A stretch of 64,000 nucleotides of DNA from an uncultured Christensenella sp. (GTDB lineage: Bacteria; Bacillota; Clostridia; Christensenellales; UBA1242), in NCBI GenBank assembly GCA_964455585.1, contig CAYVXW010000005.1, positions 1,972 to 65,971 of the forward strand, in the 5' to 3' direction. The position numbers and the translations under genes were made by a program. The notes under the pieces are model-generated. The model made no database searches, had not been told where the DNA came from, and saw nothing but the letters and a program-made list of their open reading frames with translations. Below, piece by piece: positions 10,117-45,263 of the stretch. Each line of letters opens with the position of its first letter. Position 1 is the first letter of the stretch.

Positions 10117-10127
10117 TAGGTGAAAAA

Positions 10128-10310
10128 ATGAATGTAAGAGAAGCTATGGAGAAAAAGGGTAAATTAATCACAAGTCTTGACGAACTATTGACACAAGAAA
10201 ATGTTATTTTTGCAGGGAAACCAATTCCGATTTCGTGGTGTTATGGTTGGACACTGAAACAAGCAAAAAAGAACATAGATAGAAAACTTGTGTATGCCAT
10301 AAACGAATAG
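10128..10310 (+). CDS. Hypothetical small protein
   Basis: ORF in the operon; no motif recognised. Confidence 0.35.
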   Translation: MNVREAMEKKGKLITSLDELLTQENVIFAGKPIPISWCYGWTLKQAKKNIDRKLVYAINE

Positions 10311-10318
10311 GTTGCAGT

Positions 10319-12028
10319 ATGGCATACGGACAAATGAGTTTATTTGATGGCAGTAAAGATTTTGTGATAAATAAACCTATTAGATTAATTGAATTGTTTG
10401 CAGGATATGGTAGTCAGCACTTTGCTTTGAAATATCTAGGTTTAAATGTTGAAAGTTATAAAATTTGCGAATGGGCAGTTAAAAGTATTCAAGCTTATAA
10501 AGATGCACACTTTTCAAATGATAACACTGATTATTCTGAAACTTTGTCTTATGATGAAATTGTTCAATGCTTACTTAAATGGGGAATCAGTGCAAATTAT
10601 AACGAACCAATGGCAATAGACCAAATCAAAAGAATGGGTGAAGCAAAATGTAGACAAGTCTATAACAACATTAAAGCAACTCACAACCTAGTTAATATTC
10701 AACAAGTAAATGGTAAAGATCTTGAGATTGTTGATGTAGACAAATATACCTACATAATGACTTATTCGTTTCCTTGTCAAGATTTGAGTATGGCAGGGTT
10801 GAGAGAAGGTATGGCAAAGGGCAGTGGAACAAGAAGTGGGTTACTTTGGGAAGTTGAGAGAATTTTAGATGAAATTTCCTCAGCCGATAAAACTAAACTA
10901 CCACAAATTCTACTAATGGAAAATGTTCCAGAAGTTATAGGGAGTGCTAATATATCACATTTTGCTGATTGGTTAAAGAAATTGGAAGAGTTGGGTTATA
11001 GAAATTATAAACAAATACTTAATTCAAAAGATTATGGTGTCCCTCAAAACCGAGCAAGGTGCTTTATGATTAGTCTATTGGGTGATTACTATTATGGGTT
11101 TCCTCAGCCGATAAAACTAAATGACAAGTTAAAAGATATTCTCGAAGAGAATGTTCCAGAAAAGTATTATTTGTCTGAAAGAGCATTGAAAGGTTCTTTG
11201 AATACAAATTTTGCTTGTTCAAAACTTGAAAACAAACTGCCTAAAGACGGTATTATTCCTACACTTTGTGCAAGAGATTACAAGGATCCAAAATGTGTTA
11301 TGGTTGAAATTCCAAAGGTAAACATAAACGGAAAGGACTACGATGTTACGAAAAATTGCGAAAATTATATTGAGCGGCACCAAAAGGGTTTGTTAGATAT
11401 GGAGACTAGAGCATGGAAAGATAACAAAATCGCACCGACATTACACACAAATTGTGGAAAAACTAAAATTTTGGAAAGTCAAAATTTAAAAACAAAATTG
11501 TGTAACGACTTAATCACTAGTGGGAAAGTTAAGGAAGGTGATGTGATTAGACACTCGTATAGTTCAAGTCGTATGAAAAATTTTTATGTTTCTAATTCCG
11601 AAAACCCAGATTGCAGTCCAACACTTGATACAAGATGTGATTGCTTGGGTGTCGTTGTAAAAGTGAATAGCAATAATAAAAGATTACAAGACCTTGTTTC
11701 AAAGACACAATTTGGGGATGATACATTGGCTTTAGATTGTTATAACCAAACCACACATAAAGACTTTATGCAAACAATTAAAACTAGTATTGATACTAGT
11801 AATATGAATATGATTTATACCGATTATCGTATTCGAAAATTAACTCCTAGAGAGTGCTTTAGACTTATGGGAGTAAACGATATTGACTTTGATAAAATTG
11901 CTCAAAACCAATCAAATGCGAGTTTGTATCATCTTGCAGGAGATAGTATTGTTGTCAATGTCTTAATGGCAATTTTTAAACAAATGCTAAAAGGAGAAAA
12001 CAATGAAAACGACAAAATTACAAATTGA
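10319..12028 (+). CDS. DNA cytosine-5 methyltransferase with oversized target-recognition region
   Basis: Motif I LFAGYGS, IV SFPCQDLS, VI LMENV, VIII QNRARCF, IX RKLTPRECFRLMG, X AGDSIVVNV. About 260 aa lie between motifs VIII and IX. Confidence 0.85.
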   Translation: MAYGQMSLFDGSKDFVINKPIRLIELFAGYGSQHFALKYLGLNVESYKICEWAVKSIQAYKDAHFSNDNTDYSETLSYDEIVQCLLKWGISANYNEPMAIDQIKRMGEAKCRQVYNNIKATHNLVNIQQVNGKDLEIVDVDKYTYIMTYSFPCQDLSMAGLREGMAKGSGTRSGLLWEVERILDEISSADKTKLPQILLMENVPEVIGSANISHFADWLKKLEELGYRNYKQILNSKDYGVPQNRARCFMISLLGDYYYGFPQPIKLNDKLKDILEENVPEKYYLSERALKGSLNTNFACSKLENKLPKDGIIPTLCARDYKDPKCVMVEIPKVNINGKDYDVTKNCENYIERHQKGLLDMETRAWKDNKIAPTLHTNCGKTKILESQNLKTKLCNDLITSGKVKEGDVIRHSYSSSRMKNFYVSNSENPDCSPTLDTRCDCLGVVVKVNSNNKRLQDLVSKTQFGDDTLALDCYNQTTHKDFMQTIKTSIDTSNMNMIYTDYRIRKLTPRECFRLMGVNDIDFDKIAQNQSNASLYHLAGDSIVVNVLMAIFKQMLKGENNENDKITN

Positions 12029-12260
12029 AGCTAGAACTTCAACTATGGAGAAAACAATAAAAGGTCTCGGAATTGAAATAGGGGATATTGTAAGAGTTGG
12101 ACAAGCAATTCTAATATGCACAGAAAAATATGATCTTGTTGATTTTGCAAGTGGCAAATACTCTTCAAGTGTTCCTAATTTAATTTTAGGTATGGTGTCT
12201 GGGAAAAATGAATACACGGTCTTTAAAGTTTCAGAAATGGTGGTTTATACTCTGCAATGA
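12003..12260 (+). CDS. Hypothetical small protein
   Basis: RBS AAAGGAG. Overlaps the flanking methylase genes. Confidence 0.35.
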   Translation: MKTTKLQIEARTSTMEKTIKGLGIEIGDIVRVGQAILICTEKYDLVDFASGKYSSSVPNLILGMVSGKNEYTVFKVSEMVVYTLQ

Positions 12261-12991
12261 CACTTGGAAGATTTGAATTAAACAAAGTGTATAACGAAGA
12301 TTGTTATAAAGCAATCAAAGATATCCCAGACAAAAGCATTGATTGTATTTATGTTGATATTCCTTACTTGTTTATGGGGGGGGGTGGAGGCACCAGCCGA
12401 ATCGCACAGCAAGTAAGTAAAATGAAACAAGAACTCAAGGATAATAACATTTATGATGGTATTGATTACAAAATATTTGAAGATTTTGTTAGAGTTCTCA
12501 AAAAAATAAATTGTTTCATTTGGTGTAGTAAAGAACAAATTTATCCAATTTTAGATTGGTGGATGAAAAATACTGACTGCACCTATCAAATACTTTGTTG
12601 GTGTAAAACAAACCCTGTTCCAATGTGTAATGGTAATTGGTTAAGTGATATTGAATATTGTTTGTATTTTAATCGTGGAACGAAATTGAACGATGGAATA
12701 AAACATAAGAGTAAGTGGTATTTAAGTCCACTAAACCAAAAGGATAAAGATAGTTTTGGACATCCAACCATTAAGCCATTGCCATTGGTTGAAAGACACT
12801 TATTACATACAACACAACCAAATGAGATTATTGCAGATTTCTTTTGTGGTAGTGGAACTACTTGTGTTGCTTGTAAAAATAATGGAAGAAATTACATTGG
12901 TTTTGAAATCAATGAAGAGTGGTGGAAAGTTGCAGAGAATAGATTAAACAACATAGATTCTCGTGGGCAAATTAGTCTTTTCACCAAATAA
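12257..12991 (+). CDS. Beta-class N6-adenine/N4-cytosine DNA methyltransferase
   Basis: Motif IV DIPY near the N-terminus and motif I FFCGSGTT near the C-terminus (circularly permuted beta-class order). Confidence 0.8.
   Translation: MTLGRFELNKVYNEDCYKAIKDIPDKSIDCIYVDIPYLFMGGGGGTSRIAQQVSKMKQELKDNNIYDGIDYKIFEDFVRVLKKINCFIWCSKEQIYPILDWWMKNTDCTYQILCWCKTNPVPMCNGNWLSDIEYCLYFNRGTKLNDGIKHKSKWYLSPLNQKDKDSFGHPTIKPLPLVERHLLHTTQPNEIIADFFCGSGTTCVACKNNGRNYIGFEINEEWWKVAENRLNNIDSRGQISLFTK
12376..12384 (+). repeat. Poly-G tract (9 G) inside the N6/N4 methylase coding sequence
   Basis: Read directly: ATG GGG GGG GGT, encoding MGGG just after DIPY. Confidence 0.9.
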
Positions 12992-13001
12992 AGGAGAAAA
13001 A

Positions 13002-13250
13002 ATGGTAAAAGAAGAACAAAAAATTGTAAAAGAAACTTTGCGACAAGTAAAAAATAAGTCGGTTGTATTTGACTTAAAGAGATGTGTCAGTGATGTCGTG
13101 TGGAGAGTTTGCCCTATGTCTTACTTGCAAGGACTTTGGGAAGATTATCACATCGGAATGGATATGTTTGTAAATTACTTAACTGTAATCGCTGCAAAGA
13201 AACTAGGTAAAAGGGGTGTGAATTATGACATTAACAAATTCATTCAATGA
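13002..13250 (+). CDS. Hypothetical protein
   Basis: Start at ATG 13002 behind AAGGAG. Confidence 0.35.
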   Translation: MVKEEQKIVKETLRQVKNKSVVFDLKRCVSDVVWRVCPMSYLQGLWEDYHIGMDMFVNYLTVIAAKKLGKRGVNYDINKFIQ

Positions 13251-13677
13251 AACACCTAAAATAGTTAATAAAACTTGCAATGGCAAATGTTCTAGTTGTG
13301 GAGAGTGTTGTGCAGACATTCTCCCAATAGATGACTATGAAATAAAAAAAATAAAAGATTATATAAAAACACACCAAATAAAGGAATGCAAACATATTCC
13401 TGTCGTTTGCAATTATTCGGTGTTAGATTTGACTTGTCCGTTTAGAGACAATGAAAATAAAAAATGTGCAATATATCCAGTTAGACCAGCTATTTGCAGA
13501 TGTTTTATTTGCTCACAACCTGGACCGGATATTATGCGAAATAAATTATTGTTTCACAATAAAAAAGATGTCCATAGTATGAGACACGAATTCTTTGGTG
13601 GAGATGATCTCCCAACAATTATGGAAAAACTACAAGTCATGGTAATGAGTGGTTTTAAGGGGGGCAATTATGACTAA
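13225..13677 (+). CDS. YkgJ-type cysteine-cluster (CxxCxxCC) protein
   Basis: CSSCGECC followed by CPF...C..Y..RP..CR.F.C pattern. Confidence 0.5.
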   Translation: MTLTNSFNETPKIVNKTCNGKCSSCGECCADILPIDDYEIKKIKDYIKTHQIKECKHIPVVCNYSVLDLTCPFRDNENKKCAIYPVRPAICRCFICSQPGPDIMRNKLLFHNKKDVHSMRHEFFGGDDLPTIMEKLQVMVMSGFKGGNYD

Positions 13678-13822
13678 AGAAGAAATGGAAAAATATATTG
13701 AAGAAACAATGAACTTTTTCGTAATGAACGATCCCCAATTTTATAGTGTCAAAGAAAACTACGATTGGACAGTTAATTATATTAGAAAGACATTATATAA
13801 AAAATATAACATTAAGGAGTAG
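13670..13822 (+). CDS. Small hypothetical protein (50 aa, below ORF-track cutoff)
   Basis: ATG overlaps the upstream stop (TTATGA). MTKEEMEKYIEETMNFF... fills an otherwise empty gap. Confidence 0.3.
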   Translation: MTKEEMEKYIEETMNFFVMNDPQFYSVKENYDWTVNYIRKTLYKKYNIKE

Positions 13823-13824
13823 TT

Positions 13825-14208
13825 ATGGAGTTTATTAAACATTTGAAAAATATCTATAATGTAAATTCGGAAGAAAAGAGAAAAATATGCCTTATGTGTG
13901 GTGGTTTGTTGTCAGCAGATATCTTGCCACAAAAAAGCAATGGCATAGAGTTTAATAATGGTCTAATGCTATCTATTCAGGCTAGTTTTGGTCATTATTG
14001 TTTTCCTAGAAAGACCTTGCCATACAACCAATACAAATCAATGGAGTTTGCCTTATGTAATGAGCAAGATTTTGTCAATGTTAAAGAATATTTGAACACT
14101 GACGAATATGATACATATTTTGATGGCAGTGTTTATGGGTATGTTCCAATAGAATTGATTGAAAAATTATATCAAGCATTAAAGAGTAAGTATGGGTTAA
14201 AGAGGTAG
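13825..14208 (+). CDS. Hypothetical protein
   Basis: RBS AAGGAG; no motif recognised. Confidence 0.4.
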   Translation: MEFIKHLKNIYNVNSEEKRKICLMCGGLLSADILPQKSNGIEFNNGLMLSIQASFGHYCFPRKTLPYNQYKSMEFALCNEQDFVNVKEYLNTDEYDTYFDGSVYGYVPIELIEKLYQALKSKYGLKR

Positions 14209-14210
14209 TT

Positions 14211-14438
14211 ATGGAAGAAAGAAGATATTTAATAAAGTGTCCGTATTGTGGAAAAGAGCAATACTGCACAAAATCAATATTTCATAAAATGGGAATATAT
14301 GAAATGGGTAGTGGCAATTGCTTGGTATGTAAAAAACATATGCAAATTGTTTACAAACCTGTAAGTGACACAATGGAAACGAGAGAATGGGAAAAATTTG
14401 ATAAGGAGATAAGGGATAATGAGACAAATTCTAATTAG
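14211..14438 (+). CDS. Zinc-ribbon protein
   Basis: CPYCGK ... CLVCKK pair of CxxC motifs. Confidence 0.4.
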   Translation: MEERRYLIKCPYCGKEQYCTKSIFHKMGIYEMGSGNCLVCKKHMQIVYKPVSDTMETREWEKFDKEIRDNETNSN

Positions 14439-15033
14439 TATTCAACCTAAATGGGTTGCAAAAATACTCAATGGTGGCAAAACAATCGAAATTCGCAAAA
14501 CAATACCAAAATGCGAATTGCCTTGCAAGGTTTATATTTATTGCACAAAAAGTAAACCATATCTATATAGAGTAGATGATGACAACGAATTTGAAACAAG
14601 CAATGAACTAAAATTTGAGGAAGATTGTTTTGTTAAAAATTATAATGCTCTAAATGGTAAAGTTGTGGCAGAGTTTACATTGAATAAGGTTACAGAGCAT
14701 AAAAAGAACTTTATAGATTTTGCAGATAATAAGTGCTACAACTTTAAGGTTTGCGATGTTAAAAATGCAGGGTTTGATACCGATGTGTTATCACTTTGTG
14801 ATTTTGATAATTTTGTTGAATGGTATGGCAAAGGCAAACCTTTATATGCTTGGCATATTGACGACTTAAAAATCTATGACGAGCCAAAGGAATTGAGTGA
14901 GTTTGTGTTGCCAAATAAAAAGAATTGCAAAACTTGTTTTCTTTATCCAAATATGTGCAATAAAGTTTGTGAAGAAATCGAACAACACTTATTTAGACCA
15001 CCACAAAGTTGGTGTTATGTGGAGGTAGAATAA
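14419..15033 (+). CDS. ASCH-domain-like protein with C-terminal Cys cluster
   Basis: N-terminus ILISIQPKWVAKILNGGKTIEIRK resembles the ASCH fold start. C-terminal CKTC...C...C. Confidence 0.45.
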   Translation: MRQILISIQPKWVAKILNGGKTIEIRKTIPKCELPCKVYIYCTKSKPYLYRVDDDNEFETSNELKFEEDCFVKNYNALNGKVVAEFTLNKVTEHKKNFIDFADNKCYNFKVCDVKNAGFDTDVLSLCDFDNFVEWYGKGKPLYAWHIDDLKIYDEPKELSEFVLPNKKNCKTCFLYPNMCNKVCEEIEQHLFRPPQSWCYVEVE

Positions 15034-15632
15034 TGATTTGTTATGCGATTAAATACAAAAATAATGGCAGATACATAATATTCAAACAAGAGAATGTGTT
15101 TACACCATATGATGTAAATCCATCATATTCAGCGAGAGATATTTGCGATGCAAGTTTCTTTGATGATTACGAAACTGCACTATGCTACTGCCCTAGCGAT
15201 TGCAAAGTCGTCAAGGTCGAGATTAGAGAAAAACTAGAATGCGAACATTTATTGTCGGAAGTTGAATGGCAAGATTATTGTTCATATAAAAGAATTGAGT
15301 CACAAATTAAAGGTTGTTTAGATAGAGAAAAACAACTCACTGAAAGAATAAACGAGTATGAAAGTCTTATGAATAAATATAATGTTGAGGATTTAGAGCA
15401 TTTGGATTTGATGTTGTTTTGTTTAAGTAGTGAAACTAAATATAGGTTGGCAGAGATTAAAGAAAAACACAAGAAAGAACTCCAACAATCCCAAAACCAA
15501 ACGGCAATAGAGTGCTTGGAGAAATTAAGAAAAAAGTTTGAACCTCTTCGTCTTGATTTTTATTTGGCTGGCGAAGTTATGAATGAAATAGACAAGCAAA
15601 TCGCAGAGTTAAGGGGGAAAGAGAATGATTAA
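15033..15632 (+). CDS. Hypothetical protein
   Basis: Start at ATG 15033 behind GGAGG. Confidence 0.35.
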   Translation: MICYAIKYKNNGRYIIFKQENVFTPYDVNPSYSARDICDASFFDDYETALCYCPSDCKVVKVEIREKLECEHLLSEVEWQDYCSYKRIESQIKGCLDREKQLTERINEYESLMNKYNVEDLEHLDLMLFCLSSETKYRLAEIKEKHKKELQQSQNQTAIECLEKLRKKFEPLRLDFYLAGEVMNEIDKQIAELRGKEND

Positions 15633-15915
15633 AGAAACAAATCTTAAAATAGAATGCTGTGATATATATAACAAATTAAAAGACAAGTCTGAAATGATTG
15701 ATTATCTTTATATATCAAAAGTTCATATCAAAGAACTTACGGCACAACTCGCAGTAATGAAGAAAGCACTAGAATTGGCTTGCGACTATCTTGTTTCTAA
15801 TGGGGATGATGAACTATATTATTCAATTATAAACATATATGATGATGACGAATATTTGACAGCAAAAATAAATTATTTCATAACCAAAGCAAAGGAGATA
15901 TTGAAAGATGAGTAA
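15625..15915 (+). CDS. Hypothetical protein
   Basis: Translationally coupled ORF. Confidence 0.35.
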   Translation: MIKETNLKIECCDIYNKLKDKSEMIDYLYISKVHIKELTAQLAVMKKALELACDYLVSNGDDELYYSIINIYDDDEYLTAKINYFITKAKEILKDE

Positions 15916-16654
15916 AGTTTTAAAACCCTGTCATATATTAGATAGACTTCACGATTGGTTTGATTTATATAAAAATCAAAATTATGAAAGGGCTGAAAGA
16001 GAACTGAAACCAGCAATAGACGAATTATATGACTATCAGCAGAAAGACAAACAAATCGCAGATTTAAAACAACAGTTAGAGCATTACAAGGGAACTAAAC
16101 TTGAAGATTATTCAAATGAAATTCGAGAACTTAAACAAAAACTAGAAGCAAAAGACCGAAATGCTTTGGCTTTGTTTAGTGCTTTGTATGAAGTCCTTGA
16201 AAAGCAAGACCCCGAAAATGTGTCAAGTCGAATTGATTTCTTGACAAAACAGGACAATGGCAAAATTAATGATATTTACAAAGAATGTCGAGTGTTGAAG
16301 CAACAACTAGCCGAGTCGCAAGAAAAACTAGCAGATGCAGAAGAGCATATTGATAGCCTAGAATTGCAACTAAGAGAGCAATATCAAGTGGTTGATAAGA
16401 CAGATAGAGAAATTGCTAAATTAAAATCTATTAATATAGAGAAAATTTTAATAGAGAACGAAGAATTGAAATTCAAACTTAAAATTCAGCCACGAGAGAT
16501 TGTGGAGAAGATTAAACAACGACTTAGAGAGCAAGTTACTGAAATGAGCAATAACGAACATTGCTACTTGCAAAAGGCAGTTCGTTGGAATGACATAGTT
16601 CCAATTTTGGGGCAAATTCTAAAATCTTACGAGGAGAAAAGAGATGAAAAATAG
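15908..16654 (+). CDS. Hypothetical coiled-coil protein
   Basis: Heptad-rich, E/K/Q/L-rich sequence. Confidence 0.35.
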   Translation: MSKVLKPCHILDRLHDWFDLYKNQNYERAERELKPAIDELYDYQQKDKQIADLKQQLEHYKGTKLEDYSNEIRELKQKLEAKDRNALALFSALYEVLEKQDPENVSSRIDFLTKQDNGKINDIYKECRVLKQQLAESQEKLADAEEHIDSLELQLREQYQVVDKTDREIAKLKSINIEKILIENEELKFKLKIQPREIVEKIKQRLREQVTEMSNNEHCYLQKAVRWNDIVPILGQILKSYEEKRDEK

Positions 16655-17117
16655 ATATATATTAAAATTAATAATTAAAGATAGTGTAATGCCGGAAGGG
16701 CTATACGAACTAAAAGACACCAAAAGTGATTTTTATGCTATGATTGAGGGCAAAAGAGATGCGAAAAAGATTGTAAATCTACTTAACTCAAAAGAGCAAA
16801 TGATTAGGGATATGGAGAAAGATAATGATGAAACTATTATTGCTGGGTTGCAAGTGGTTAAAGATACCCTTATGTTACAAAATAAATGTTATGACCTATT
16901 AATAGATGATGTTGTATTAAGAATAGCACTAAAAATGGCATGTAGATATTTTCTTTATCCTAGTCACGAAGATAATAAGATATTGCAAAAAAGATTGAGC
17001 ATTTTGGATAAGTCTCCACGTTTAAAGGTTGACGAGGCCGCTAAATATTTTGAGGAGAAAGCAAGAAAAGAATGTAAAATAGGAGAAAAAGATTATGGCA
17101 AGAAAGAAAACGGATAA
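16644..17117 (+). CDS. Hypothetical protein
   Basis: Translationally coupled ORF behind GAGGAG. Confidence 0.35.
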   Translation: MKNRYILKLIIKDSVMPEGLYELKDTKSDFYAMIEGKRDAKKIVNLLNSKEQMIRDMEKDNDETIIAGLQVVKDTLMLQNKCYDLLIDDVVLRIALKMACRYFLYPSHEDNKILQKRLSILDKSPRLKVDEAAKYFEEKARKECKIGEKDYGKKENG

Positions 17118-18144
17118 TACTATAAATAATAGTAATAATAATAGTATTGATAATGTTGAGAAAAAGACTGAAAAGAAAAGAAATGGAATAAATAATCATC
17201 ATGGTGGAGCTGCAAACGATGGGCAACCACTTGTAAAGGTTGATGAAAACGGAAAACCACACAAATACGATAAATATGGAAATCTGGTTACCGAAAACAC
17301 TGGAAAGGGCAAGGGAATCACACTTAAAAATTATTATGCTTGTGCAAATAAAAACATTTCGGCGCCAATGCCAGAAGAGTTAATTCGCAACCTAACTCGA
17401 CCATATCACTCAATAAACGATATGCCAATAGAATATATATATAATAGTATTATAAATTATTTTATTAGTCTAACCGAGCCAGTGTATGAACGAGTTCCCA
17501 AACTAGATGAAAACGACAACCCAATATATGATAATTATGGTAAACCAATTCTTGAAACAAAACTCGTAAAATGCAACTACAAAAATGTTCCAACAATGTA
17601 TGGACTTGCTCAATCACTAGGTGTCGAAGTGAAAACTCTCTATGACTACCTTAATACTAAACAATTTAGTGATAACTCATTATATAATACTAATATTATT
17701 AATAATAAAAATAATGGTTATTCTAATCATCGTCAGACAACTTTGCCTAATAGTAGAAATAAAATAGTAGATTTGAGTGATTTTAATAATAATACTACTA
17801 AATTATTATATAATATTTATGGAGAAAGTATTTTTGAAGAGTGTAATAGGGTAAGGACTGAAAAAGATTACAAAATCGATCTACTCAAAAGGGCTAGAAC
17901 GGAAATTCTTAAGTATCACGAACAAAGATTAGGCACCAACGAAAATGTTTCAGGTTCTATGTTTGCCTTGCTCAACTCGAAAGATGGTTGGACAAACGAA
18001 CACAAGGTTACTGTGGAAGTTCCAAATTTATTGGGTGGCATTAAAACTCCGGAAGAGTTGGACAACCTTGCCGATGATGATGATAATATAATTGTTGTAG
18101 ACAACGGAGAAGGGGTTTTTGAAGTTCCAGATAGTCTTGACTAG
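17095..18144 (+). CDS. Terminase small subunit (P27/Terminase_2-like) with N-rich N-terminal extension
   Basis: HTH NVPTMYGLAQSLGVEVKTLYDYL. Later LKRARTEILKYHEQRL..NENVSGSMFALLNSKDGWTNEHKV matches the TerS pattern (agaiFaLKN..GW.D). Confidence 0.6.
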   Translation: MARKKTDNTINNSNNNSIDNVEKKTEKKRNGINNHHGGAANDGQPLVKVDENGKPHKYDKYGNLVTENTGKGKGITLKNYYACANKNISAPMPEELIRNLTRPYHSINDMPIEYIYNSIINYFISLTEPVYERVPKLDENDNPIYDNYGKPILETKLVKCNYKNVPTMYGLAQSLGVEVKTLYDYLNTKQFSDNSLYNTNIINNKNNGYSNHRQTTLPNSRNKIVDLSDFNNNTTKLLYNIYGESIFEECNRVRTEKDYKIDLLKRARTEILKYHEQRLGTNENVSGSMFALLNSKDGWTNEHKVTVEVPNLLGGIKTPEELDNLADDDDNIIVVDNGEGVFEVPDSLD

Positions 18145-18615
18145 AAAAAGTTTTGAGATATTCGCAAGAAAAAGATTTGTGATTTGTGAAAATATCAATT
18201 TTTTGGCACCTAGAAAGCACGAAAAAGATTTTTGCGATAAATTACCCTAGTCGGTGGTTAAAATGCCTAGAATGGCACAAAAACTAACGATTTAGGCATA
18301 TCTGAATACAAAAATAAAAGTAGGAGAAAAAGATTTCCTACTTTTTTACTAGAAAAAGATATGTTTGAGTGCGATAATTTTGATAAAAATGTTAACTTGC
18401 TGGTAATTTGTCGGCAAGTTGCTAATATCACTATTTATATATAGTATTAATAATAAATACTATTATTGCGAGAAAAAGATAGACATTTTAACTTGCTAAT
18501 AAGCATTTTTGAGAAAAAGATTGCCAAAACAATTGGAAAAAGATAAGAAAAAGATTTTCCGCCACCTTGCAAAAGATTTGTGGAAATGTGGAAAAAGATT
18601 TTCCAGGAAAAAGAT
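18143..18615 (+). repeat. Iteron array: 10 exact, same-strand copies of GAAAAAGAT plus 2 variants
   Basis: Exact copies start at 18168, 18221, 18326, 18352, 18472, 18513, 18536, 18547, 18591 and 18607. Non-coding region immediately after TerS. Confidence 0.85.
18320..18348 (+). terminator. Hairpin plus T-run after TerS
   Basis: GTAGGAGAAAAAGATTTCCTAC followed by TTTTTT. Confidence 0.45.
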
Positions 18616-18872
18616 TTATTAATGTATGGGGTGGAAATTTGCCCCAAAACAAAACCCGAAATTTTTAGGGGTGGATGTGTTCGGGGTAGTGGGTTATTTT
18701 TAGCACTAAAAAAAGAGAGCTTTACAAACTCCCTTTTGATTGTTTTATTATTTCATATTTTAGGTCTTTTATTTGTTTCATTTCTTGCATTTGTTTTTTG
18801 TTCTCCTTTATTACTTAAATTTTTTGTTTATGCCCTTTATAAAATTTGCTAATACTCCAATTATTATATATA

Positions 18873-19103
18873 TTAATTGCATAGTCTAAACGATCCACAA
18901 CTTAATTTTTTTAGTTGCTCTTGTGCTTTTTGTTCGGTTTCGTATATACTACAAAAATATAATTGATTATGATCATATGTTGCATAGCATTTTAAAATGT
19001 GGGCTTGTTCTTTTGTTCTTGATCCTTTATATGGTAAAATTTGCTTTTGTTCGATTGTTGCCATGTTGCCGAAATTGTCAAAATACTTTTTTATTGGTTG
19101 CAT
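18873..19103 (-). CDS. Hypothetical protein (accessory island)
   Basis: Strong RBS AGGAGG upstream on the minus strand. Confidence 0.45.
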   Translation of the reverse strand: MQPIKKYFDNFGNMATIEQKQILPYKGSRTKEQAHILKCYATYDHNQLYFCSIYETEQKAQEQLKKLSCGSFRLCN

Positions 19104-19114
19104 GTGTCCGCCTC

Positions 19115-19363
19115 CTATAACTCCACGTCTACAAATTTATATTTGTATGTGTATGTTATATTTTGTATTTGGGTTTTGTATTGGTCAAACCTTTGTATTA
19201 TGTTTATTTCGTTGTTTAGTCTTGTTATTTGTGTTTTGGTTGCTCGTTTTGTTTCTTTTGTATATAGAGTTTGTGCGATATTTTTATATATTGTTGTTGT
19301 GTCCGTGCTTGTAATTTCGTTTACTTGTTCGTTATTTCTATAAATTTTTAAAATCATTTGCAT
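19115..19363 (-). CDS. Hypothetical protein (accessory island)
   Basis: RBS GAGGTG. Overlaps the stop of the upstream gene. Confidence 0.4.
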   Translation of the reverse strand: MQMILKIYRNNEQVNEITSTDTTTIYKNIAQTLYTKETKRATKTQITRLNNEINIIQRFDQYKTQIQNITYTYKYKFVDVEL

Positions 19364-37508: not shown

Positions 37509-38393
37509 ATGAGTGCATGGGAACAAAAACCGGAATATACCGAACTTGAAGAAATATTTTCAGAACAAACAACCAATAAAATCGGTTTAACTGCCGAGCA
37601 ACTTAATATAGTATTACATAATATTAGATACTTAAAGAACCATTTAGGTCTTGCAGATGTCGAAATGGGTGTTATGGAAACTGTGTATACGGAACCGGGC
37701 TCACCATTTGATGTTGTGATAACACACAGGGAAGAAAGTCAAGGTGAAGGTGTAAATAAAGTTGATTATTTCGATTTCAAATTTTACATTGCAGTTGCAA
37801 AGATAGAAACCGAAGCCAATGCGATTATTTCTGAAAACACAAATGAAGTTAAAGCAACTATTGAAAATACAAAGTTGTCAGATATGACAGGTTATAAGTT
37901 TAAGTTTAACTTTACAATTCCGAGAGGTTTGCAAGGAACAAAAGGTGCAGGTTTTAGGAATAAAGGAACTTATAACTCCGAGACAACCTATGTAAATAAC
38001 GATATTTATATAGACTATGTTAATTATAATGGTAGTTTGTATTGCCCAAAAGTCGAAGAAACAATAGGACACGAACCAACTGAAACTGATTACTGGACAT
38101 TAATGGTTGCCAAAGGTGAACACGGAGTGAGTATTGTTGGTATAGAAAAAACCAAAACGGAAGGACTGGTTGACACCTATACCATATCATTTAGTGAAGG
38201 TGAACCATTTGTATTCGCAGTCACTAATGGAGACACTCCAGATGTTTCCGACAAAGAAGACAAGTCAAATAAGGTATCCGAAATATCAACATCCAATAAA
38301 ACAAGTGATGAAAAATATCCGTCTTGTTCGGCAGTTGCTAATTATGTCGATACAAAATTTGGAGAAATGGCAACATTGCTAGGTGAGGTGTAA
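37509..38393 (+). CDS. Tail fibre protein
   Basis: Short collagen-like GLQGTKGAG. Sits in the fibre module. Confidence 0.45.
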   Translation: MSAWEQKPEYTELEEIFSEQTTNKIGLTAEQLNIVLHNIRYLKNHLGLADVEMGVMETVYTEPGSPFDVVITHREESQGEGVNKVDYFDFKFYIAVAKIETEANAIISENTNEVKATIENTKLSDMTGYKFKFNFTIPRGLQGTKGAGFRNKGTYNSETTYVNNDIYIDYVNYNGSLYCPKVEETIGHEPTETDYWTLMVAKGEHGVSIVGIEKTKTEGLVDTYTISFSEGEPFVFAVTNGDTPDVSDKEDKSNKVSEISTSNKTSDEKYPSCSAVANYVDTKFGEMATLLGEV

Positions 38394-38710: not shown

Positions 38711-40015
38711 GTGAGTATAGATACAACCAAAAAGGTAAATGGAATATCTGTAAATGGAACAAATATGCAATTCGGTTCCGGTATAGATTCCAATATATTA
38801 CCAAGTAATATTAAAGAAGGTGTTAGCATTTTGGGTGTTGATGGAACATTCAAAGGTGGCACCTTACAAAACAAAACAATAAACATAACAAGGAATAAAA
38901 CGACCATTGTTACACCCGATGATGGATATTATGGTCTTGGACAAGTTGAAATCATAACAAAGGTTCAAGGCGGCAGTGGTGGAACATCGTCTGCAATCTA
39001 TGGGGTGTCTTGGGATAACGATGGCACAACAACAATGACAAGAACCGATGATGCTGTAGAAATGACTTATGCGATTTCAAACGGAAAAGTTGCAAGTGAT
39101 TTTGACAATGTGTTCCCATACAACGAAATGAAAAGAACAACAATAGACGGAAATGTATTTGTACATGTTCCTGCCATGTTCTTTAGGGTAACAGTTGATG
39201 AGGACAAAAAAATCACAGGTGTTGCAGTAAGTCAAACACAAGGTGAGGGTGATGACTGGTATGAAACAAGACCTTTCTATTACGGAGCCTATGGTGCATC
39301 TAGTGATGGTTCGGTATTAAAATCGGTTAGTGGTGCAAGTAGAAAATATTCTATTACAAGAGCAAATGCAAGAACCCAGGCAATGGCAGTTGGAACTGAT
39401 TATCACCAAAGAGACCTATATGCTGGAACAATACTTATGTTCTTGTGGTGGATAGAATTTGCAACCAAAAACTCGGCAAGTATTATGACAGGCACACAAT
39501 ATGACAAAACCACTGGCAATACCGATAGCATTTACAACGAAGAAGAAGGTGAAAATTTCTGTGTTAGTGGTTATAATACATCCACATCTCAAATGGTATG
39601 GCACGGAATTGAAGATTATATCGGAAATGGTCTTGAGTGGGAAGATGGAATTACCGGTAATGGTTCTTCTGGTGGAACTCAATATGTGAGTGATGACTAC
39701 ACTCTATATGACGATTATTCTGGTGGGAGCAAGATGTCAGAATTGTCGTTCAATTCTCCGACAACAAGTGGGAACTGTCTAGAGGCTCTTGGCTGGGATG
39801 AAGATCATCCATTCTTGGTTCAACCTATTGCAACACGAAGTGATGGTAGTTATGTGAGTGGGTTCTGCGACTATGGTTCGACTAGCAACAATATAGTCTC
39901 CTCCCGTGGGTGTAGCTACCCGTCGAGTGCCTACAGCGGGGTCTCTTACTTCGCTCGTCGCAATGTGTCGCCTTCGTATTCGGACATCGGTTGTCGCCTT
40001 CTATTAAATGCCTAG
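38711..40015 (+). CDS. DGR target protein: receptor-binding tail fibre with C-terminal FGE/C-type-lectin-like variable domain
   Basis: GTG start. IGNGLEWEDG (FGE-sulfatase-like motif). The C-terminal 36 codons form the VR, ending ...IGCRLLLNA. Confidence 0.85.
   Translation: MSIDTTKKVNGISVNGTNMQFGSGIDSNILPSNIKEGVSILGVDGTFKGGTLQNKTINITRNKTTIVTPDDGYYGLGQVEIITKVQGGSGGTSSAIYGVSWDNDGTTTMTRTDDAVEMTYAISNGKVASDFDNVFPYNEMKRTTIDGNVFVHVPAMFFRVTVDEDKKITGVAVSQTQGEGDDWYETRPFYYGAYGASSDGSVLKSVSGASRKYSITRANARTQAMAVGTDYHQRDLYAGTILMFLWWIEFATKNSASIMTGTQYDKTTGNTDSIYNEEEGENFCVSGYNTSTSQMVWHGIEDYIGNGLEWEDGITGNGSSGGTQYVSDDYTLYDDYSGGSKMSELSFNSPTTSGNCLEALGWDEDHPFLVQPIATRSDGSYVSGFCDYGSTSNNIVSSRGCSYPSSAYSGVSYFARRNVSPSYSDIGCRLLLNA
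39896..40005 (+). repeat. DGR variable region (VR)
   Basis: 110-bp alignment to 40089-40198 at a constant offset of 193. 16 mismatches fall at TR adenines and 2 do not. Confidence 0.85.
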
Positions 40016-40027
40016 ACAGGGGGCAGT

Positions 40028-40042
40028 GGGGGATATTCCCCC
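40028..40042 (+). promoter_or_regulatory. GC hairpin downstream of VR (GGGGGA-TAT-TCCCCC)
   Basis: 6-bp stem and 3-nt loop, about 22 nt after the end of VR homology. Confidence 0.6.
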
Positions 40043-40088
40043 AAATACAACCAATTACAATTAAATAAAATAAAGGGTATTTGTTGCT

Positions 40089-40198
40089 GTCTCCTACCGT
40101 GGTTGTAACAACCCGTCGAATGCCAACAACGGGGTCTCTTACTTCAATCGTAACAATGTGTCGAATTCGAATTCGAACATCGGTTGTCGCAATGTATT
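40089..40198 (+). repeat. DGR template repeat (TR), non-coding
   Basis: In the VR frame it reads V S Y R G C N N P S N A N N G V S Y F N R N N V S N S N S N I G C R N, with 12 AAY codons. Confidence 0.85.
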
Positions 40199-40326
40199 TC
40201 CAAAAGCATCAAAAAGAAAATTCGTTTTCAAGGCAACACTTATCCTATACCACTTGGTAGAAAACACTCCGAACTAGGAGTAGGTTAGTAAATAATTGAA
40301 AGCTTACTAGGGGAAATAGATGGTTT

Positions 40327-41406
40327 ATGAAAAGAGTAGGATATATTTATGAAAAGATTATTGATTTGCAAAATTTAGAGTTGGCAATTGTAAAAGCATG
40401 TGAACACAAAAAGAAAAATAAGTTTATTGTTCATTTGTTGGAGAATAAAAGTTCATATGCTCAAGAAATAAGAACTCTAATTTTACAGGAAGATTTCCAT
40501 CCTTTAATCATTAAACATAAGAAAATAAAAGAAAAGACCAAAGTAAGAGATATTGCAGTTCCAAAGTTTTATCCAGACCAAATTATTCATTGGGCAGTTT
40601 GTTTACAATTGAATCAGATATTTATGAAAGGTATGTATCATTACAATTGTGGCAGTGTTCCAAATCGTGGTGGAGTTTATGCTAAAAAATATATCGAAAA
40701 ATGTTATTCAATATTAAAAGAGAAAAAATCTTACACGTTGAAACTTGACATTAAAAAATATTTTTACAACATTTCACACGAAAAAATGGAAGAATTGTTT
40801 CGAGAAAAAATTAAAGATGAAAGAGTTCTTGAAATGCTACACAAAATTATTGATTGTGGGGAAGATGGTTTACCAATAGGGTTTTATACATCCCAATGGT
40901 TCGCAAATTTTTATCTTCATAGACTTGATAATTATATAAAACAAGTATTACAAATTAAATACTATATTAGATATGTAGATGATATGGTTTTAATTGATAC
41001 AAATAAACGAAAATTACACAAGGCAGTTGAAGAAATACAAAAATATCTCGATAACAATAGTTATTGTGTAACACTAAAAGATAATTGGCAGTTGTGGAAA
41101 ACCTTTTCTCGACCACTTGATTTTCTAGGATATAGGTTCTACAAAAATTATACATTGTTGAGAAAAGGAATTCTCAAGAAAATGAAAAGACAAATCTTGA
41201 GAGTTGGAAAAGAAAAGACTTTGAGAATATGTAGGGCAAGGGCATTGACTTCGTATATGGGTTGGTTAAAACAAACAAGCATATCAAGGAGTTTCTATGT
41301 CAAACATATTAGACCTACTTGCAGTAAAAAATGGGTTGGCAGAATAATATCACATGATAGTAAAAGGAGAAATAAAAATGATAATAAAAGACGGAACAAA
41401 CCCTAA
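40327..41406 (+). CDS. DGR reverse transcriptase
   Basis: RT motif 5 IRYVDDMVLI (YxDD). DGR-type motif 4 LPIGFYTSQWFANFYL. 359 aa, directly downstream of TR. Confidence 0.9.
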   Translation: MKRVGYIYEKIIDLQNLELAIVKACEHKKKNKFIVHLLENKSSYAQEIRTLILQEDFHPLIIKHKKIKEKTKVRDIAVPKFYPDQIIHWAVCLQLNQIFMKGMYHYNCGSVPNRGGVYAKKYIEKCYSILKEKKSYTLKLDIKKYFYNISHEKMEELFREKIKDERVLEMLHKIIDCGEDGLPIGFYTSQWFANFYLHRLDNYIKQVLQIKYYIRYVDDMVLIDTNKRKLHKAVEEIQKYLDNNSYCVTLKDNWQLWKTFSRPLDFLGYRFYKNYTLLRKGILKKMKRQILRVGKEKTLRICRARALTSYMGWLKQTSISRSFYVKHIRPTCSKKWVGRIISHDSKRRNKNDNKRRNKP

Positions 41407-41638
41407 AATTGAAAAATTAAAAACTAGGCTTGGACTGACTGGAGATGTCTATCTTTATAACAACCATTTTGTCGAGAATTTGGAAAGTCACAAAAGACTA
41501 ATTCCAAATAGCACTGCCACCACTATAAGTGAAGCATTTGTTGAGAGGGTTGAGTATGAAATTGAACAAGAGAAAATTCGAGAAGAAATGCAAAAAGAAC
41601 AAATTGCAGAAGGGGAAGAAAAACCAGTCGAGATATAA
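41378..41638 (+). CDS. Hypothetical acidic protein overlapping the RT 3' end
   Basis: ATG 41378 (track start 41354 is an alternative). No motif recognised. Confidence 0.35.
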   Translation: MIIKDGTNPKIEKLKTRLGLTGDVYLYNNHFVENLESHKRLIPNSTATTISEAFVERVEYEIEQEKIREEMQKEQIAEGEEKPVEI

Positions 41639-41760: not shown

Positions 41761-42501
41761 ATGGAACCTTACGAAGATGAAGAGTTGGATAAAATTATTG
41801 AAGATAGGTTAAAGCAAAAAGAAGAGAAAGCACAAGAAGAGCAATCTCGTGATTTGCAACCTGTAGAAAGCAATAATATGAGTGTTTCTGAAACACAAAT
41901 TGAAATGCCTAATTTTATCCCACAAATTGATAAGTCAAAGGAATTAAGTGAACAAGCAAGTGATGTTGTTCAGATAATGGGAGCCCAAAAAGCATCAACC
42001 GACCAAAGTTTTATGGAAGATGTCTCAAAGAATTTCCAAAAAGGTGTTCTTACCGAGCAAGAAACAAAAAATATGAAAAAACAAAGATTGCTTGAACAAG
42101 AATACTTTCTAAAATGGAAAGATGTCTTGAACTTTGTTTTCATTAAGTCACCACATGGTTTACTTTTTATGAAGATAATGACTTTTATTGGTATGATTGT
42201 CTATATTCCAACTAGACTTGTGGGTATGATAATCAAAGCAGTTGGAATGGTTGGTGAATTTATAAACGAAATCTTTAACTCTGTCTTTGGTGGCAAGGGG
42301 AAATATTTGAGAGATTCCAATGGGAACCCAGTTTTAGATCCCGTGACAAAAAAACCATACATAGAAAAACAAGGATACAACTTGTTCGCAAAAATGCTAT
42401 TTGGCATTGTGATTGCAGGTTTGGCACTAGCATTAATATTCTTATTTGTCGAATTGTTCACTGGTTTCAGTGTATTCGGTTGGTTTAGAGAAATATTATA
42501 A
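41761..42501 (+). CDS. Membrane protein (acidic N-terminus, C-terminal TM segments)
   Basis: RBS AAGGAG. TM stretches LLFMKIMTFIGMIVYI and LFGIVIAGLALALIFLFVELF. Confidence 0.45.
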   Translation: MEPYEDEELDKIIEDRLKQKEEKAQEEQSRDLQPVESNNMSVSETQIEMPNFIPQIDKSKELSEQASDVVQIMGAQKASTDQSFMEDVSKNFQKGVLTEQETKNMKKQRLLEQEYFLKWKDVLNFVFIKSPHGLLFMKIMTFIGMIVYIPTRLVGMIIKAVGMVGEFINEIFNSVFGGKGKYLRDSNGNPVLDPVTKKPYIEKQGYNLFAKMLFGIVIAGLALALIFLFVELFTGFSVFGWFREIL

Positions 42502-42935
42502 TGTTTCCTACCGAGTTAAGAATATTTTATGAGCGACCAAAACCCAAAACATTTATTGAGTATATTATCGACCAAATAATAAATGGTCGTAATATAAATT
42601 TAGAAAAAAAGGAGGCCTTTGTAATGTTAGAACGTTTGCAAGAAAAGAAAGTTCAACTTAATGCAAGACTTGAGACTATTGGTGGTTCTCACGAAGAAGA
42701 AATCAAAGTTAAAGTTGCAGAATTTGAAGCAAAAATTCGTGAAGAGTTTGAAATTGCCGACAAAGTTGAACGAGAAAAAGTGATTAACCAACTTGAAATC
42801 GTTGAAGAATTAATCACTGAAGAAACTAACCGAGCAAATGAAGCTTTGGCAGATCAGTCAACTGACACAGAAACAACTGAACCAGTCACTGAAAATTACG
42901 ATCCAACAAACGAAATAAGTGTAGAAGGAGAATAG
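42501..42935 (+). CDS. Hypothetical acidic coiled-coil protein
   Basis: Alternative start ATG 42624 has a strong RBS AAGGAGG. Confidence 0.35.
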   Translation: MFPTELRIFYERPKPKTFIEYIIDQIINGRNINLEKKEAFVMLERLQEKKVQLNARLETIGGSHEEEIKVKVAEFEAKIREEFEIADKVEREKVINQLEIVEELITEETNRANEALADQSTDTETTEPVTENYDPTNEISVEGE

Positions 42936-42939
42936 TTTT

Positions 42940-43455
42940 ATGTGGAGAGAGATTTTTATGAGTGCATCAATATTGGCCTCAATAATTTTGGCAGTAGTTG
43001 GAATTTGTAAAACTCCATTCAAAACCTTTAAAGCAAAACATCCTAAAACTTATAGAGCAGTATTCTTTATACTATCATTGCTATTAGTAGTTGGTGGTAG
43101 CATAATCTCTGAACTATACATAATTGAGGGGCCATTGCTTTCGGTTGAGTTTGCAATTTTAATTATTTCCACAGGGTTTGTAGTATTCGGTGGATATGCT
43201 GGATATGAAAATCTTGGAATAAAGACACTAGTGCATAAGATTACTGGGGGCTTGAAAACTTTATTTTCAACATATAGCGATAGTAAAATCGCAAAGATGA
43301 TTGGACAAGTTGGTATGGATCGCATTAATGAAATATATAATGCAACCAATACAACAATAGTGGAAGAAAAAACAATTGAAACTAATGTTGTTGTGGAAGA
43401 ACCAAAACTTGAACCGGAAATCATCATTGATGAAAATAAACCAAATGAAAATTAA
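42940..43455 (+). CDS. Holin-like multi-TM protein
   Basis: Three to four hydrophobic segments (ILASIILAVVGIC, AVFFILSLLLVVGGSII, FAILIISTGFVVFGGYAGY). Last gene before the terminator. Confidence 0.4.
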   Translation: MWREIFMSASILASIILAVVGICKTPFKTFKAKHPKTYRAVFFILSLLLVVGGSIISELYIIEGPLLSVEFAILIISTGFVVFGGYAGYENLGIKTLVHKITGGLKTLFSTYSDSKIAKMIGQVGMDRINEIYNATNTTIVEEKTIETNVVVEEPKLEPEIIIDENKPNEN

Positions 43456-43470
43456 TAGTTAAAATAAAAG

Positions 43471-43500
43471 AATAGACATCGTAATGGTGTCTATTTTTTT
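43471..43500 (+). terminator. Rho-independent terminator
   Basis: ATAGACA-CGTAATGG-TGTCTAT followed by TTTTTTT. Confidence 0.65.
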
Positions 43501-43594
43501 ATCTATATTAAACGTGCTTCCTTTTTGCCTTTTTCTAATATTAATCTTAATACTAAACATTTAGAAATATTTACTAGTGATAATGGAATGTCAA

Positions 43595-43603
43595 GGGGGG
43601 GGG
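43595..43603 (+). repeat. Poly-G tract (9 G) upstream of the lipoprotein gene
   Basis: Read directly. Immediately followed by TATGAT, 65 nt before ATG 43668. Confidence 0.9.
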
Positions 43604-43667
43604 TATGATAGGGTTAGAGAATGTACTTTTTGCATTCAAAAATTTAAAAATTAAAAAAGGAGAAAAT

Positions 43668-45263
43668 ATGAAAGAAAAATTTAAAAAACTTTTAAAAATG
43701 TTCGCGATTTGCTGTATGGCGCTCATTTCGTGCTTCTCGATTTTTGCTTGTGGCGAAACACCTGACGACCCAGAAACTCCCGGCAGTGGAACTGAACAAG
43801 AATTGCCAGAAGGCGTTACAGGTACTCCTGTTACCGAGACTACTGCGGTTGATAAATTCAATCAATTGAAGACTGCAAGGGATGCAATGACTCCAAACAA
43901 CGGCTACACTTACACCGACGAAGGTACAACCAAAATGGAAGTAACACCAAACTGGGATGCTTTTGAGAGAAATAAAGTAGCAAAAATGGAAGGTGAAGAT
44001 GTTTCACTTGCCGATGATACTACTTTCACTGCATTCAAAGGTACCATTGATGCAGGTCTTTCTCGAATGAATGATGACTATTCTAGCAAAGAAATTATAT
44101 CTTACAATAGCACTACTAAAAATGGATATAATTTGTATGAATCTTCTAGTGGAGATAAGACATATGAAATTTCGGATATCGAAAATAATATGTTGTATGA
44201 TTATTCTAGCAATACATACACAGATAGTGGTAATAATACTCTAGAATACAAACGTAAATACAACATTGACCAAAACTACTATAACCAATTCACTTATGAC
44301 TTCTATGAAAATATGGAATATAGCGTTGGTGAGGTTCTAAAAGACACTTTGGAAGACACCGAAAGTTATCTAAGAAATGGCTTTGAATCAATGGGTCTTA
44401 CTTTTAGTGAAGATGACCTTGGATTTACTTTTGAAGAAGAAAACGGGCTTTATACTTTGGTTATCTATGCAAATGTAACAGATAAAACAATGAATTTCTA
44501 TGGTGAAAGCCTTACAGGTGCGGACTTTACAATGTCGCTAGTATTCAAATTTAATTCTACTATGCTAACAGAACTTAGTGCGGTTATGAACCTTGATGCA
44601 ACTATGGCTATGCCTGTAGGTCAAGATGCAAACGGAAATGACGTAAATCTTTCGATTGCTTTTGATATGGACAACACCCAAAAATTCACTTTCTCAAACA
44701 CCTATGACGCCGAGCACGCTCCAACGTACGTTGCTAGTGAGTTTGTAGGCGATGGCTATGATGATGGCGAACAAGTTGTAACAAATAATTCTTCAAATGT
44801 ATGTCTACATATTGGCGATTATGAGTTTGGAAATGTAGATTTTAAAATGGGAGATGCTTTAAATTATAGCGATCCTTGGATTTTTAGTGGTTTTGTTACA
44901 GGTGGACTAAACGGTATTACTTGGTATACCGACAAGGCTTGTACTCAAGCATTTATAGGAAATATGCCATCTTATGACATTAACCTTTATGCAAAATATA
45001 GTGATGCTTTGGCAAAATTGGATACCAATCACGTATTTGTTCTTGAAATGTATACAAGCAACTATGTTTCTAGTGTAGACTATGAGGCTTACAGTGAGCC
45101 TAGAATTGATGTAACTGAAAAAACAGGAACAGTTAACGCCGAATATTACACTTGTGCATATGTAAATGGCACAAAAGTAGAAGCAGGTCAAAGTTATACT
45201 CTAAATACAGGCCTAAACAAAATTATATTTGTTTACAATCCAGAATATTATTATTATTATTAA
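43668..45263 (+). CDS. Surface lipoprotein with C-terminal Listeria-Bacteroides repeat
   Basis: Start ATG 43668 behind AAAGGAG. Signal peptide with lipobox SIFAC|G. ITWYTDKACTQAF...INLYAKY. Ends in YYYYY. Confidence 0.7.
   Translation: MKEKFKKLLKMFAICCMALISCFSIFACGETPDDPETPGSGTEQELPEGVTGTPVTETTAVDKFNQLKTARDAMTPNNGYTYTDEGTTKMEVTPNWDAFERNKVAKMEGEDVSLADDTTFTAFKGTIDAGLSRMNDDYSSKEIISYNSTTKNGYNLYESSSGDKTYEISDIENNMLYDYSSNTYTDSGNNTLEYKRKYNIDQNYYNQFTYDFYENMEYSVGEVLKDTLEDTESYLRNGFESMGLTFSEDDLGFTFEEENGLYTLVIYANVTDKTMNFYGESLTGADFTMSLVFKFNSTMLTELSAVMNLDATMAMPVGQDANGNDVNLSIAFDMDNTQKFTFSNTYDAEHAPTYVASEFVGDGYDDGEQVVTNNSSNVCLHIGDYEFGNVDFKMGDALNYSDPWIFSGFVTGGLNGITWYTDKACTQAFIGNMPSYDINLYAKYSDALAKLDTNHVFVLEMYTSNYVSSVDYEAYSEPRIDVTEKTGTVNAEYYTCAYVNGTKVEAGQSYTLNTGLNKIIFVYNPEYYYYY

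Follow-up and report, generated by a model that had tools for sequence, protein, structure and literature searches.

A diversity-generating retroelement cassette with an RT-18 RNA and no recognisable Avd gene in a prophage of an uncultured Christensenella sp.

A 64,000-nt stretch of contig CAYVXW010000005.1 (assembly GCA_964455585.1, positions 1,972 to 65,971) from an uncultured Christensenella sp., hereafter called the window, contains a complete diversity-generating retroelement (DGR) cassette on the + strand, in the order target gene, variable repeat (VR), hairpin, template repeat (TR), 128-nt spacer and reverse transcriptase (RT) gene. The cassette is an ordinary member of the Avd-less TR-RT class, Architecture A1 of Wu et al. 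2018, the accessory types tested being avd, HRDC and MutS_I (CH1 has no public model). We consider it probable that this is a canonical, active, phage-borne TR-RT DGR which, without Avd, diversifies the C-type-lectin tip of a prophage receptor-binding fibre. The absence of Avd, noted in a preliminary description of this DNA, is not unusual: Avd-less TR-RT cassettes have already been described (PMC5758913, PMC7290462).

The RT gene (40327-41406, +) is an intact open reading frame (ORF) of 359 aa, whose translation reads LPIGFYTSQ at the IGxxxSQ motif and YVDD at the catalytic motif. The product matched RVT_1 (1.8e-14) and phrog_1423 (3.5e-87), and the nearest solved structure was that of Bordetella bRT (8ub7_A, 3.4e-21). 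A search with the RT matched 80 viral contigs at 34-48% identity and 80 genome contigs, mostly gut or rumen metagenome-assembled genomes (MAGs) labelled Bacilli, Clostridia, Mollicutes or Acholeplasmatales. The best genome match was locus L083, on an Acholeplasmatales MAG (50% identity), and the nearest isolated phage was Lactobacillus phage LBR48 (NC_027990, 41%). The window RT scored 139 bits against the RT of crAssphage LMMB by tblastn and 79 bits against bRT by phmmer, two scores that are not directly comparable as the programs differ.

The target gene (38711-40015, +), which is preceded by a tail-fibre gene (37509-38393, phrog_5073), encodes a tail-fibre or receptor-binding protein of 434 aa, the C-terminus of which forms a variable domain of the C-type-lectin (FGE-like) type. 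The AlphaFold model had a predicted local distance difference test score (pLDDT) above 90 over residues 92-434, and its best matches in PDB were the DGR variable proteins TaqVP (5vf4, E 1.2e-5) and Mtd (1yu4, E 6e-3), with further fold matches to FGE and TvpA (FGE-type C-type-lectin fold). The VR (39896-40005, +; 110 nt) occupies the last ~40 codons of the target and carries the initiation of mutagenic homing (IMH) sequence at its 3′ end (...GGTTGTCGCCTTCTATT). The TR (40089-40198, +; 110 nt) contains 28 adenines and ends with the corresponding IMH* (...GGTTGTCGCAATGTATT). Read in the VR frame, the TR is rich in AAC and AAT codons, in which most of its adenines are located. The two repeats aligned over 110 nt with no gap, and the mismatches comprised 16 at TR adenines and two elsewhere. 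One of the latter two is the fixed IMH/IMH* difference: the sequence GGTTGTCGC is common to both repeats near their 3′ ends and is followed by CCTTC in the VR and AATGT in the TR, an arrangement fixed in 12 of 12 copies of the cassette (see below). The other, a T-to-G change from TR to VR at 39910 (VR column 15), lies inside the mutable stretch and was seen in the window copy only (1 of 12).

A hairpin with a 7-bp GC-rich stem (TGGGGGA-TAT-TCCCCCA; 40027-40043, +) is located downstream of the VR and IMH. Its DNA folding energy was lower than that of shuffled sequences (z = -2.5), and it is kept in two near-identical prophages (L173 and L183), with change confined to the loop. It is the analogue of the inverted repeat that follows the IMH in BPP-1 (PMC12875486). 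The target stop is separated from the TR by 73 nt with no gene in between, the TR end from the RT start by 128 nt, and the target end (40015) from the RT start (40327) by 311 nt in all. The positions of hairpin, TR and spacer in this gap agree with the preliminary description, whereas its statement that no ORF fits there does not hold strictly, for two short mechanical ORFs are present: 40081-40260 (+, 59 aa, TTG start, covering the TR in another frame) and 40139-40267 (-, 42 aa). Both run across the TR, and both fall well short of the ~110-130 aa of an Avd protein.

In agreement with the preliminary description, no recognisable Avd gene was found in or near the cassette. From the ORFs with a length of 60-230 aa on both strands of the whole 64-kb window, 148 were scanned against Pfam, giving 31 families at E ≤ 0.01, of which the best 25 reach E = 0.0046. 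Neither bAvd (PF22296) nor 23S_rRNA_IVP (PF05635) was found among these ORFs at E ≤ 0.0046, and HRDC and MutS_I were not found among the best 25 of the 31 families (E ≤ 0.0046). By the same procedure BPP-1 Avd matched bAvd at 7.3e-36, HRDC was detected upstream of the RT in an outgroup (2.7e-18), and MutS_I was detected in other loci. The matches listed in an NCBIfam scan of all window ORFs were to 25 families, helix-turn-helix and housekeeping ones, and are uninformative on weak Avd matches.

The search was extended to 245 non-redundant gene-like ORFs of 85-165 aa located within 4 kb of the RT in ~165 related loci (at most three per cluster). No Avd family was found among them at E ≤ 1e-5 besides the spiked control, the family lists being complete at that threshold (20 + 15 families). 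A local bAvd hidden Markov model (HMM), a narrow one built from 120 homologues with at least 64% identity to BPP-1 Avd, gave no match in related-locus ORFs, and BPP-1 Avd gave no matches by phmmer or jackhmmer among all ORFs of the related loci. Therefore, the lack of Avd is a property of the clade and not an accident of the window, and of the options named in the preliminary description, a DGR that works without Avd is favoured.

Other accessory-type genes were seen in some of the relatives. A 132-aa protein with MutS domain I (PF01624, ~3e-13) is encoded on the opposite strand, at a conserved distance of 2.2-3.2 kb downstream of the RT, in 34 loci of the clade (L036:7669-8067, L095:11459-11854, L025:9464-9859 and L088:6149-6544, all on the - strand, and 30 further loci). 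It resembles the "MSL" class of DGR accessory proteins of Wu et al. and has no homologue in the window. In a cluster of four loci (L162:2795-3397, +) the RT start is directly adjoined by a gene for a 201-aa HRDC-domain protein (2.7e-18). These loci are among the most distant RT relatives (Kiritimatiellia and similar, ~26% identity) and have the known HRDC architecture; the spacer RNA described below was not found in them.

It is improbable that Avd or another known accessory gene lies outside the window, in an unseen prophage end or the host genome, and acts in trans. Avd, TR and brt are able to act in trans from a plasmid (PMC5758913), and the source contig (68,366 bp) is longer than the 64,000-bp window. 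Phage early DNA still occupies the left 19 kb (1-19300), with genes for an SMC_N-like ATPase, RecT, a primase with a DnaG-type zinc ribbon, a DnaB-like helicase, a C5 DNA methylase and an N6/N4 DNA methylase. The prophage thus extends to the left window edge and may be truncated there. Against this explanation stands the clade-wide lack of Avd, which makes it unlikely: no Avd was found in the 64-kb window or within 4 kb of the RT in the ~165 related loci, several of which are on viral contigs of 30-60 kb. Whole-genome profile searches of Avd-less DGRs by Wu et al. likewise found none (PMC5758913), and if Avd were supplied by the host, a temperate phage would be deprived of the function whenever it moved to another host.

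The 128 nt between TR and RT, listed as a spacer in the preliminary description, contain a structured RNA, RT-18 (Rfam RF03021; 40248-40321, +), presumed to be the RT-binding part of the DGR RNA. The match covered the full length of the model (1-84 of 84) and, at 52.8 bits (E 6e-8), exceeded the gathering score of 41.3. RF03021 was found directly upstream of the RT in 10 of 10 RT-bearing loci tested and in 0 of 3 RT-less loci. In an alignment of RT-18 from 11 loci, compensatory changes were seen at nine of the ten consensus pairs, and the two strands that form the internal loop, UAGUA and GAAA, were nearly invariant. A covariance model built from these 11 instances (R1) matched 79 of the 80 viral loci, LBR48, 65 of the 80 genome loci and the window, in every case within ~100 nt upstream of the RT start; the lone viral locus with no match has no upstream sequence. 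BPP-1, the RT-less loci and the five most distant loci (L156-L158, L161 and L162) gave no match to the model, and an HRDC-type gene is located directly upstream of the RT in four loci of this distant group. RT-18 is the RNA hallmark of a large clade of Avd-less phage DGRs. As the fold of the whole TR-spacer region was no more stable than that of shuffled sequences (z = 0.02), the structural signal comes from covariation and not from folding energy. A candidate primer duplex between the TR 3′ end and the spacer (RNAduplex) was unconvincing and was dropped.

At the same TR-RT position BPP-1 has another Rfam family, RF03022 (the RT-10 motif). Weinberg et al. 2017 had placed RT-10 in the BPP-1 TR-RT gap and speculated that other RT motifs serve other DGRs (PMC5737381), and a 2026 survey predicted a sarcin-ricin loop in RT-18, RT-17, RT-14 and RT-10 (PMC13085918). 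Judged by position and by this common loop, RT-18 is most likely the counterpart of the 3′ "bRT-binding" stem of the BPP-1 spacer. Sub-threshold matches to Rfam RT motifs (RT-17, RT-4, RT-14) were also present just upstream of the RT in other phage DGRs, namely those of crAssphage LMMB (L189, 2910-3002), phage Arawn (L190, 2885-2994), phage ACA1 (L191, 2888-3007) and phage Perkons (L192, 2872-2968). In the more distant Avd-less phage DGRs the motifs matched were RT-4 or RT-17. From this distribution, each Rfam "RT-n" family would seem to be the form that the DGR spacer RNA takes in one lineage.

The next gene after that of the RT is ORF86 (41378-41638, +), which encodes a conserved, acidic protein of 86 aa from the ATG at 41378, preceded by the Shine-Dalgarno sequence AAAGGAG (41363-41369); a 94-aa form from 41354 has an isoelectric point (pI) of 5.1. 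The first 29 nt of ORF86 overlap the RT gene up to and including its stop (41404-41406). Near-identical phages differ in the C-terminus of the RT: the RT of the window and of L183 is 359 aa long with the 29-nt overlap (41378-41406 in the window), and that of L173-L182 is 351 aa long with a 4-nt ATGA overlap (L173:3501-3504). The ORF86 family comprised 90 protein clusters in a collection of 5.8 billion sequences, none of them with a Pfam domain. Its alignment showed 12 invariant residues across 45 members, followed by an acidic low-complexity tail. A family-based AlphaFold2 model (pLDDT 89) consisted of a short beta-hairpin with helices and then one long helix. No fold match better than E = 1 was found for this model in PDB or BFVD, and nothing was found when the family profile was searched against PDB sequences.

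The preliminary description had noted that the product of this ORF is acidic, unlike Avd, and overlaps the RT stop, all of which stands, and had considered it a candidate replacement factor, a role made unlikely by its occurrence without an RT, its predicted fold, and its absence from more than 140 related RT loci. As an Avd protein it was rejected by its length (86 aa), its pI of ~5, and the lack of a predicted helical bundle, of a Pfam match and of a fold match in PDB, which is expected to include Avd. As a general DGR accessory it was rejected by its presence in three RT-less lineages and its absence from those >140 loci. As a member of the tail assembly chaperone family Phage_tail_APC (PF16778) it was rejected because neither Pfam nor a clade-specific APC HMM gave a match; only the genomic position is equivalent.

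Five lineages have ORF86 after the RT (the window group, L083, L163-L165, L167-L169 and L170). The family HMM and phmmer/jackhmmer detected it only in L083 among the 160 loci of the RT scan, and the other RT-bearing members were gathered through look-ups of the ORF86 family itself. In three further lineages (L166, L171 and L172) ORF86 is located 9-67 nt after a fibre gene that is 37-42% identical to the window target over residues 90-431, with no RT, TR or RT-18. Downstream of ORF86 these three have small unannotated genes, and L171 and L172 also have a holin and/or a CHAP lysin. Across 192 loci, every ORF86 with available upstream sequence was preceded by a close homologue of the window fibre (at least 168 bits). 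The post-RT slot is occupied by a Phage_tail_APC chaperone (7.3e-12) in 118 loci, in which the fibre scored at most 51 bits against the window target where it was detected (12 loci), and ORF86 and Phage_tail_APC occurred together in none of the 192 loci. From the RT-less loci, the fibre homology and the mutual exclusion with APC, ORF86 travels with the fibre and not with the RT. Its overlap with the RT stop is read as tight gene packing, as for the APC gene, which overlaps the RT stop by a median of 40 nt. Both are small genes specific to one fibre family that follow a receptor-binding fibre gene and precede lysis genes; they share no sequence similarity and no fold match, and a chaperone role for ORF86 is suggested by position only. 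Its position makes it most probable that ORF86 serves the fibre, as a partner or in assembly, and is not a DGR component. The fibre gene and this partner flank the TR-RT unit, just as a different fibre gene and its APC chaperone flank it in the sister clade.

We therefore regard as improbable a role for ORF86 as a non-homologous replacement for Avd that is translationally coupled to the RT and assists it in binding or positioning the template RNA. The overlap with the RT stop (29 nt in the window; 4 nt, ATGA, in L163, L167, L170 and L173), the retention of ORF86 after the RT in distinct lineages, and the purifying selection evident from its invariant residues are in favour of such a role. They are outweighed by its placement directly after a homologous fibre gene where RT, TR and RT-18 are missing, by its presence in only 1 of the 160 RT-scan loci, by an acidic protein with an acidic tail being the opposite of a nucleic-acid binder, by a predicted fold with neither a helical bundle nor a structural relative, and by its mutual exclusivity and positional equivalence with the tail assembly chaperone.

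Evidence of activity came from comparison of the window with 11 contigs from other samples that carry near-identical prophages (12 copies in total); read sets of such samples are SRR33013279-92 and SRR33036516-39. In the two that were checked, L173 and L183, the RT was ~90%, the target 86-87% and ORF86 90-94% identical to the window. The 12 copies had three TR variants, differing at two C/T positions (columns 9 and 48), versus 10 distinct VRs. The VR was variable at 25 of the 28 TR-adenine columns and at six other columns, two of which track the TR polymorphisms. Ten VRs against three TRs, with adenine-centred variation, are what repeated, adenine-mutagenic transfer from TR to VR leaves behind, here with no Avd encoded. 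The element thus appears to be active, as judged from sequence at the level of the lineage. That the cassette is instead a decaying relic, in which Avd was lost, diversification is over and the TR/VR differences are historical, is the least probable explanation, because although the activity of a single copy is beyond proof from sequence alone and one non-adenine mismatch (T to G, column 15) falls within the mutable stretch, the RT ORF is intact with both IGxxxSQ and YVDD, the TR, IMH/IMH*, hairpin and RT-18 are all intact and conserved, 10 VRs accompany an almost invariant TR in near-identical prophages from different samples, and the Avd-less layout is maintained in ~150 loci.

These features place the cassette among known DGRs. 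Among the 372 DGRs of Wu et al. 2018, avd was present in 74%, and 75 were assigned to Architecture A, the core TR-RT with no accessory genes; an Avd-less Lineage 3 was described as well (PMC5758913). Their profile searches of the host genomes of Avd-less DGRs were without success (PMC5758913), and Avd-independent retrohoming has been proposed (PMC5758913, PMC7290462). CrAssphage LMMB, with the order target-VR-TR-RT, was assigned to Lineage 3 (PMC7290462). The window shares with DGRs of the Architecture A1 or Lineage-3 type the order target-VR(IMH)-TR(IMH*)-RT, a single adjacent target, the phage context, the lack of avd and other accessory genes, a low number of non-adenine substitutions and a VR in a C-type-lectin fold. 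It differs from LMMB in that the LMMB RT is only ~30% identical to the window RT and the LMMB spacer gave a weak RT-17-like match (30.5 bits, below gathering) and not RT-18. With BPP-1 (mtd-avd-TR-brt) it shares the tail-fibre C-type-lectin target, A-to-N substitution from the TR, IMH/IMH*, the post-VR hairpin, a structured RNA between TR and RT, and the RT family. However, BPP-1 needs a pentameric Avd encoded between target and TR, where the window has only the 73 nt, and its spacer RNA is RT-10 (RF03022) instead of RT-18 (RF03021). LBR48 and the prophage DGRs L001-L155 (from IMG/VR or MAGs) resemble the window in having an RT 34-50% identical to its own, RT-18 directly upstream of the RT, no Avd, and the RT placed between a tail-fibre gene and lysis genes. 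Of these loci, 118 differ from the window in having an APC chaperone of ~170 aa that overlaps the RT stop and a different fibre family, where the window and ~10 lineages have ORF86, and 34 differ in carrying the MutS-domain-I (MSL-like) gene.

A mechanism consistent with these observations can be proposed. A single transcript would span the TR and the 128-nt spacer and probably extend into flanking sequence. In its 3′ part the spacer would adopt the RT-18 fold, a 4-bp hairpin followed by a long stem with the UAGUA/GAAA internal loop of the sarcin-ricin type, and this structure would recruit the RT. The RT would then copy the TR into cDNA with misincorporation opposite adenines, and the cDNA would take the place of the VR, with the IMH and the hairpin downstream of it as guides. 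As no Avd, HRDC or MutS-like protein is encoded, the clade appears to work by RT and RNA alone, or with a host factor. We infer that RT-18 binds the RT, that cDNA synthesis is cis-primed and proceeds with no protein cofactor, and that ORF86 acts on the fibre. Going further, and tentatively, the RT-18 clade might represent a minimal two-component DGR, consisting of an RT of ~350 aa and one RNA (TR plus RT-18 scaffold), with cis-primed, adenine-mutagenic and cofactor-free cDNA synthesis, in which either the RNA scaffold or an N-terminal extension of the RT would do the positioning job of the pentameric Avd; we hold this generalization to be possible but somewhat less likely than its opposite.

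Several points weigh against this account. In BPP-1, the sole system studied biochemically, bRT is inactive without Avd (bioRxiv 10.1101/2023.10.23.563531; PMC12875486), and a cofactor-free RT therefore remains a proposal; no experimental reconstitution of an Avd-less DGR was found in the literature. The assignment of RT-18 as the RT-binding element is drawn from its position and from analogy with BPP-1. ORF86 overlaps the RT stop in every RT-bearing lineage, and some functional coupling to the RT is possible. The prophage runs to the left window edge, and the 64-kb window covers all but a few kb of the contig. The VR diversity between samples shows past activity of the lineage and is not proof for this copy.

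As for the remainder of the prophage, no integrase was identified within the window, and host genes (PcrA) begin at 45347. No endolysin and no recognisable holin family were found after ORF86 in 41761-45263, a region which encodes proteins of 246, 144 and 171 aa with no significant Pfam match and then a 552-aa protein, the N-terminus of which resembles a lipoprotein signal by eye in the translation. Several relatives are labelled Acholeplasmatales or Mollicutes, and if the host is wall-less, lysis may differ. In L173 and L183 a 571-aa serine recombinase gene directly follows a 169-aa gene. tRNA genes adjoin the integrase or recombinase end in L083 (14387-14458) and L172 (12170-12235) and are likely attachment sites.

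About one in four known DGRs is Avd-less, and mechanistic work has all been done on BPP-1. The present locus adds no new class. What the analysis adds is RT-18 as a hallmark of the clade, the placement of the TR-RT unit between a fibre gene and its partner gene, and evidence of activity from natural copies. The locus offers a well-defined test system for Avd-independent retrohoming, with a short RT, a 311-nt non-coding region containing RT-18, natural evidence of activity, and a candidate partner, ORF86, now set aside. If the proposal is true, the DGR-based tools for targeted mutagenesis that are under construction in E. coli would gain a simpler chassis in a DGR that needs no protein cofactor.

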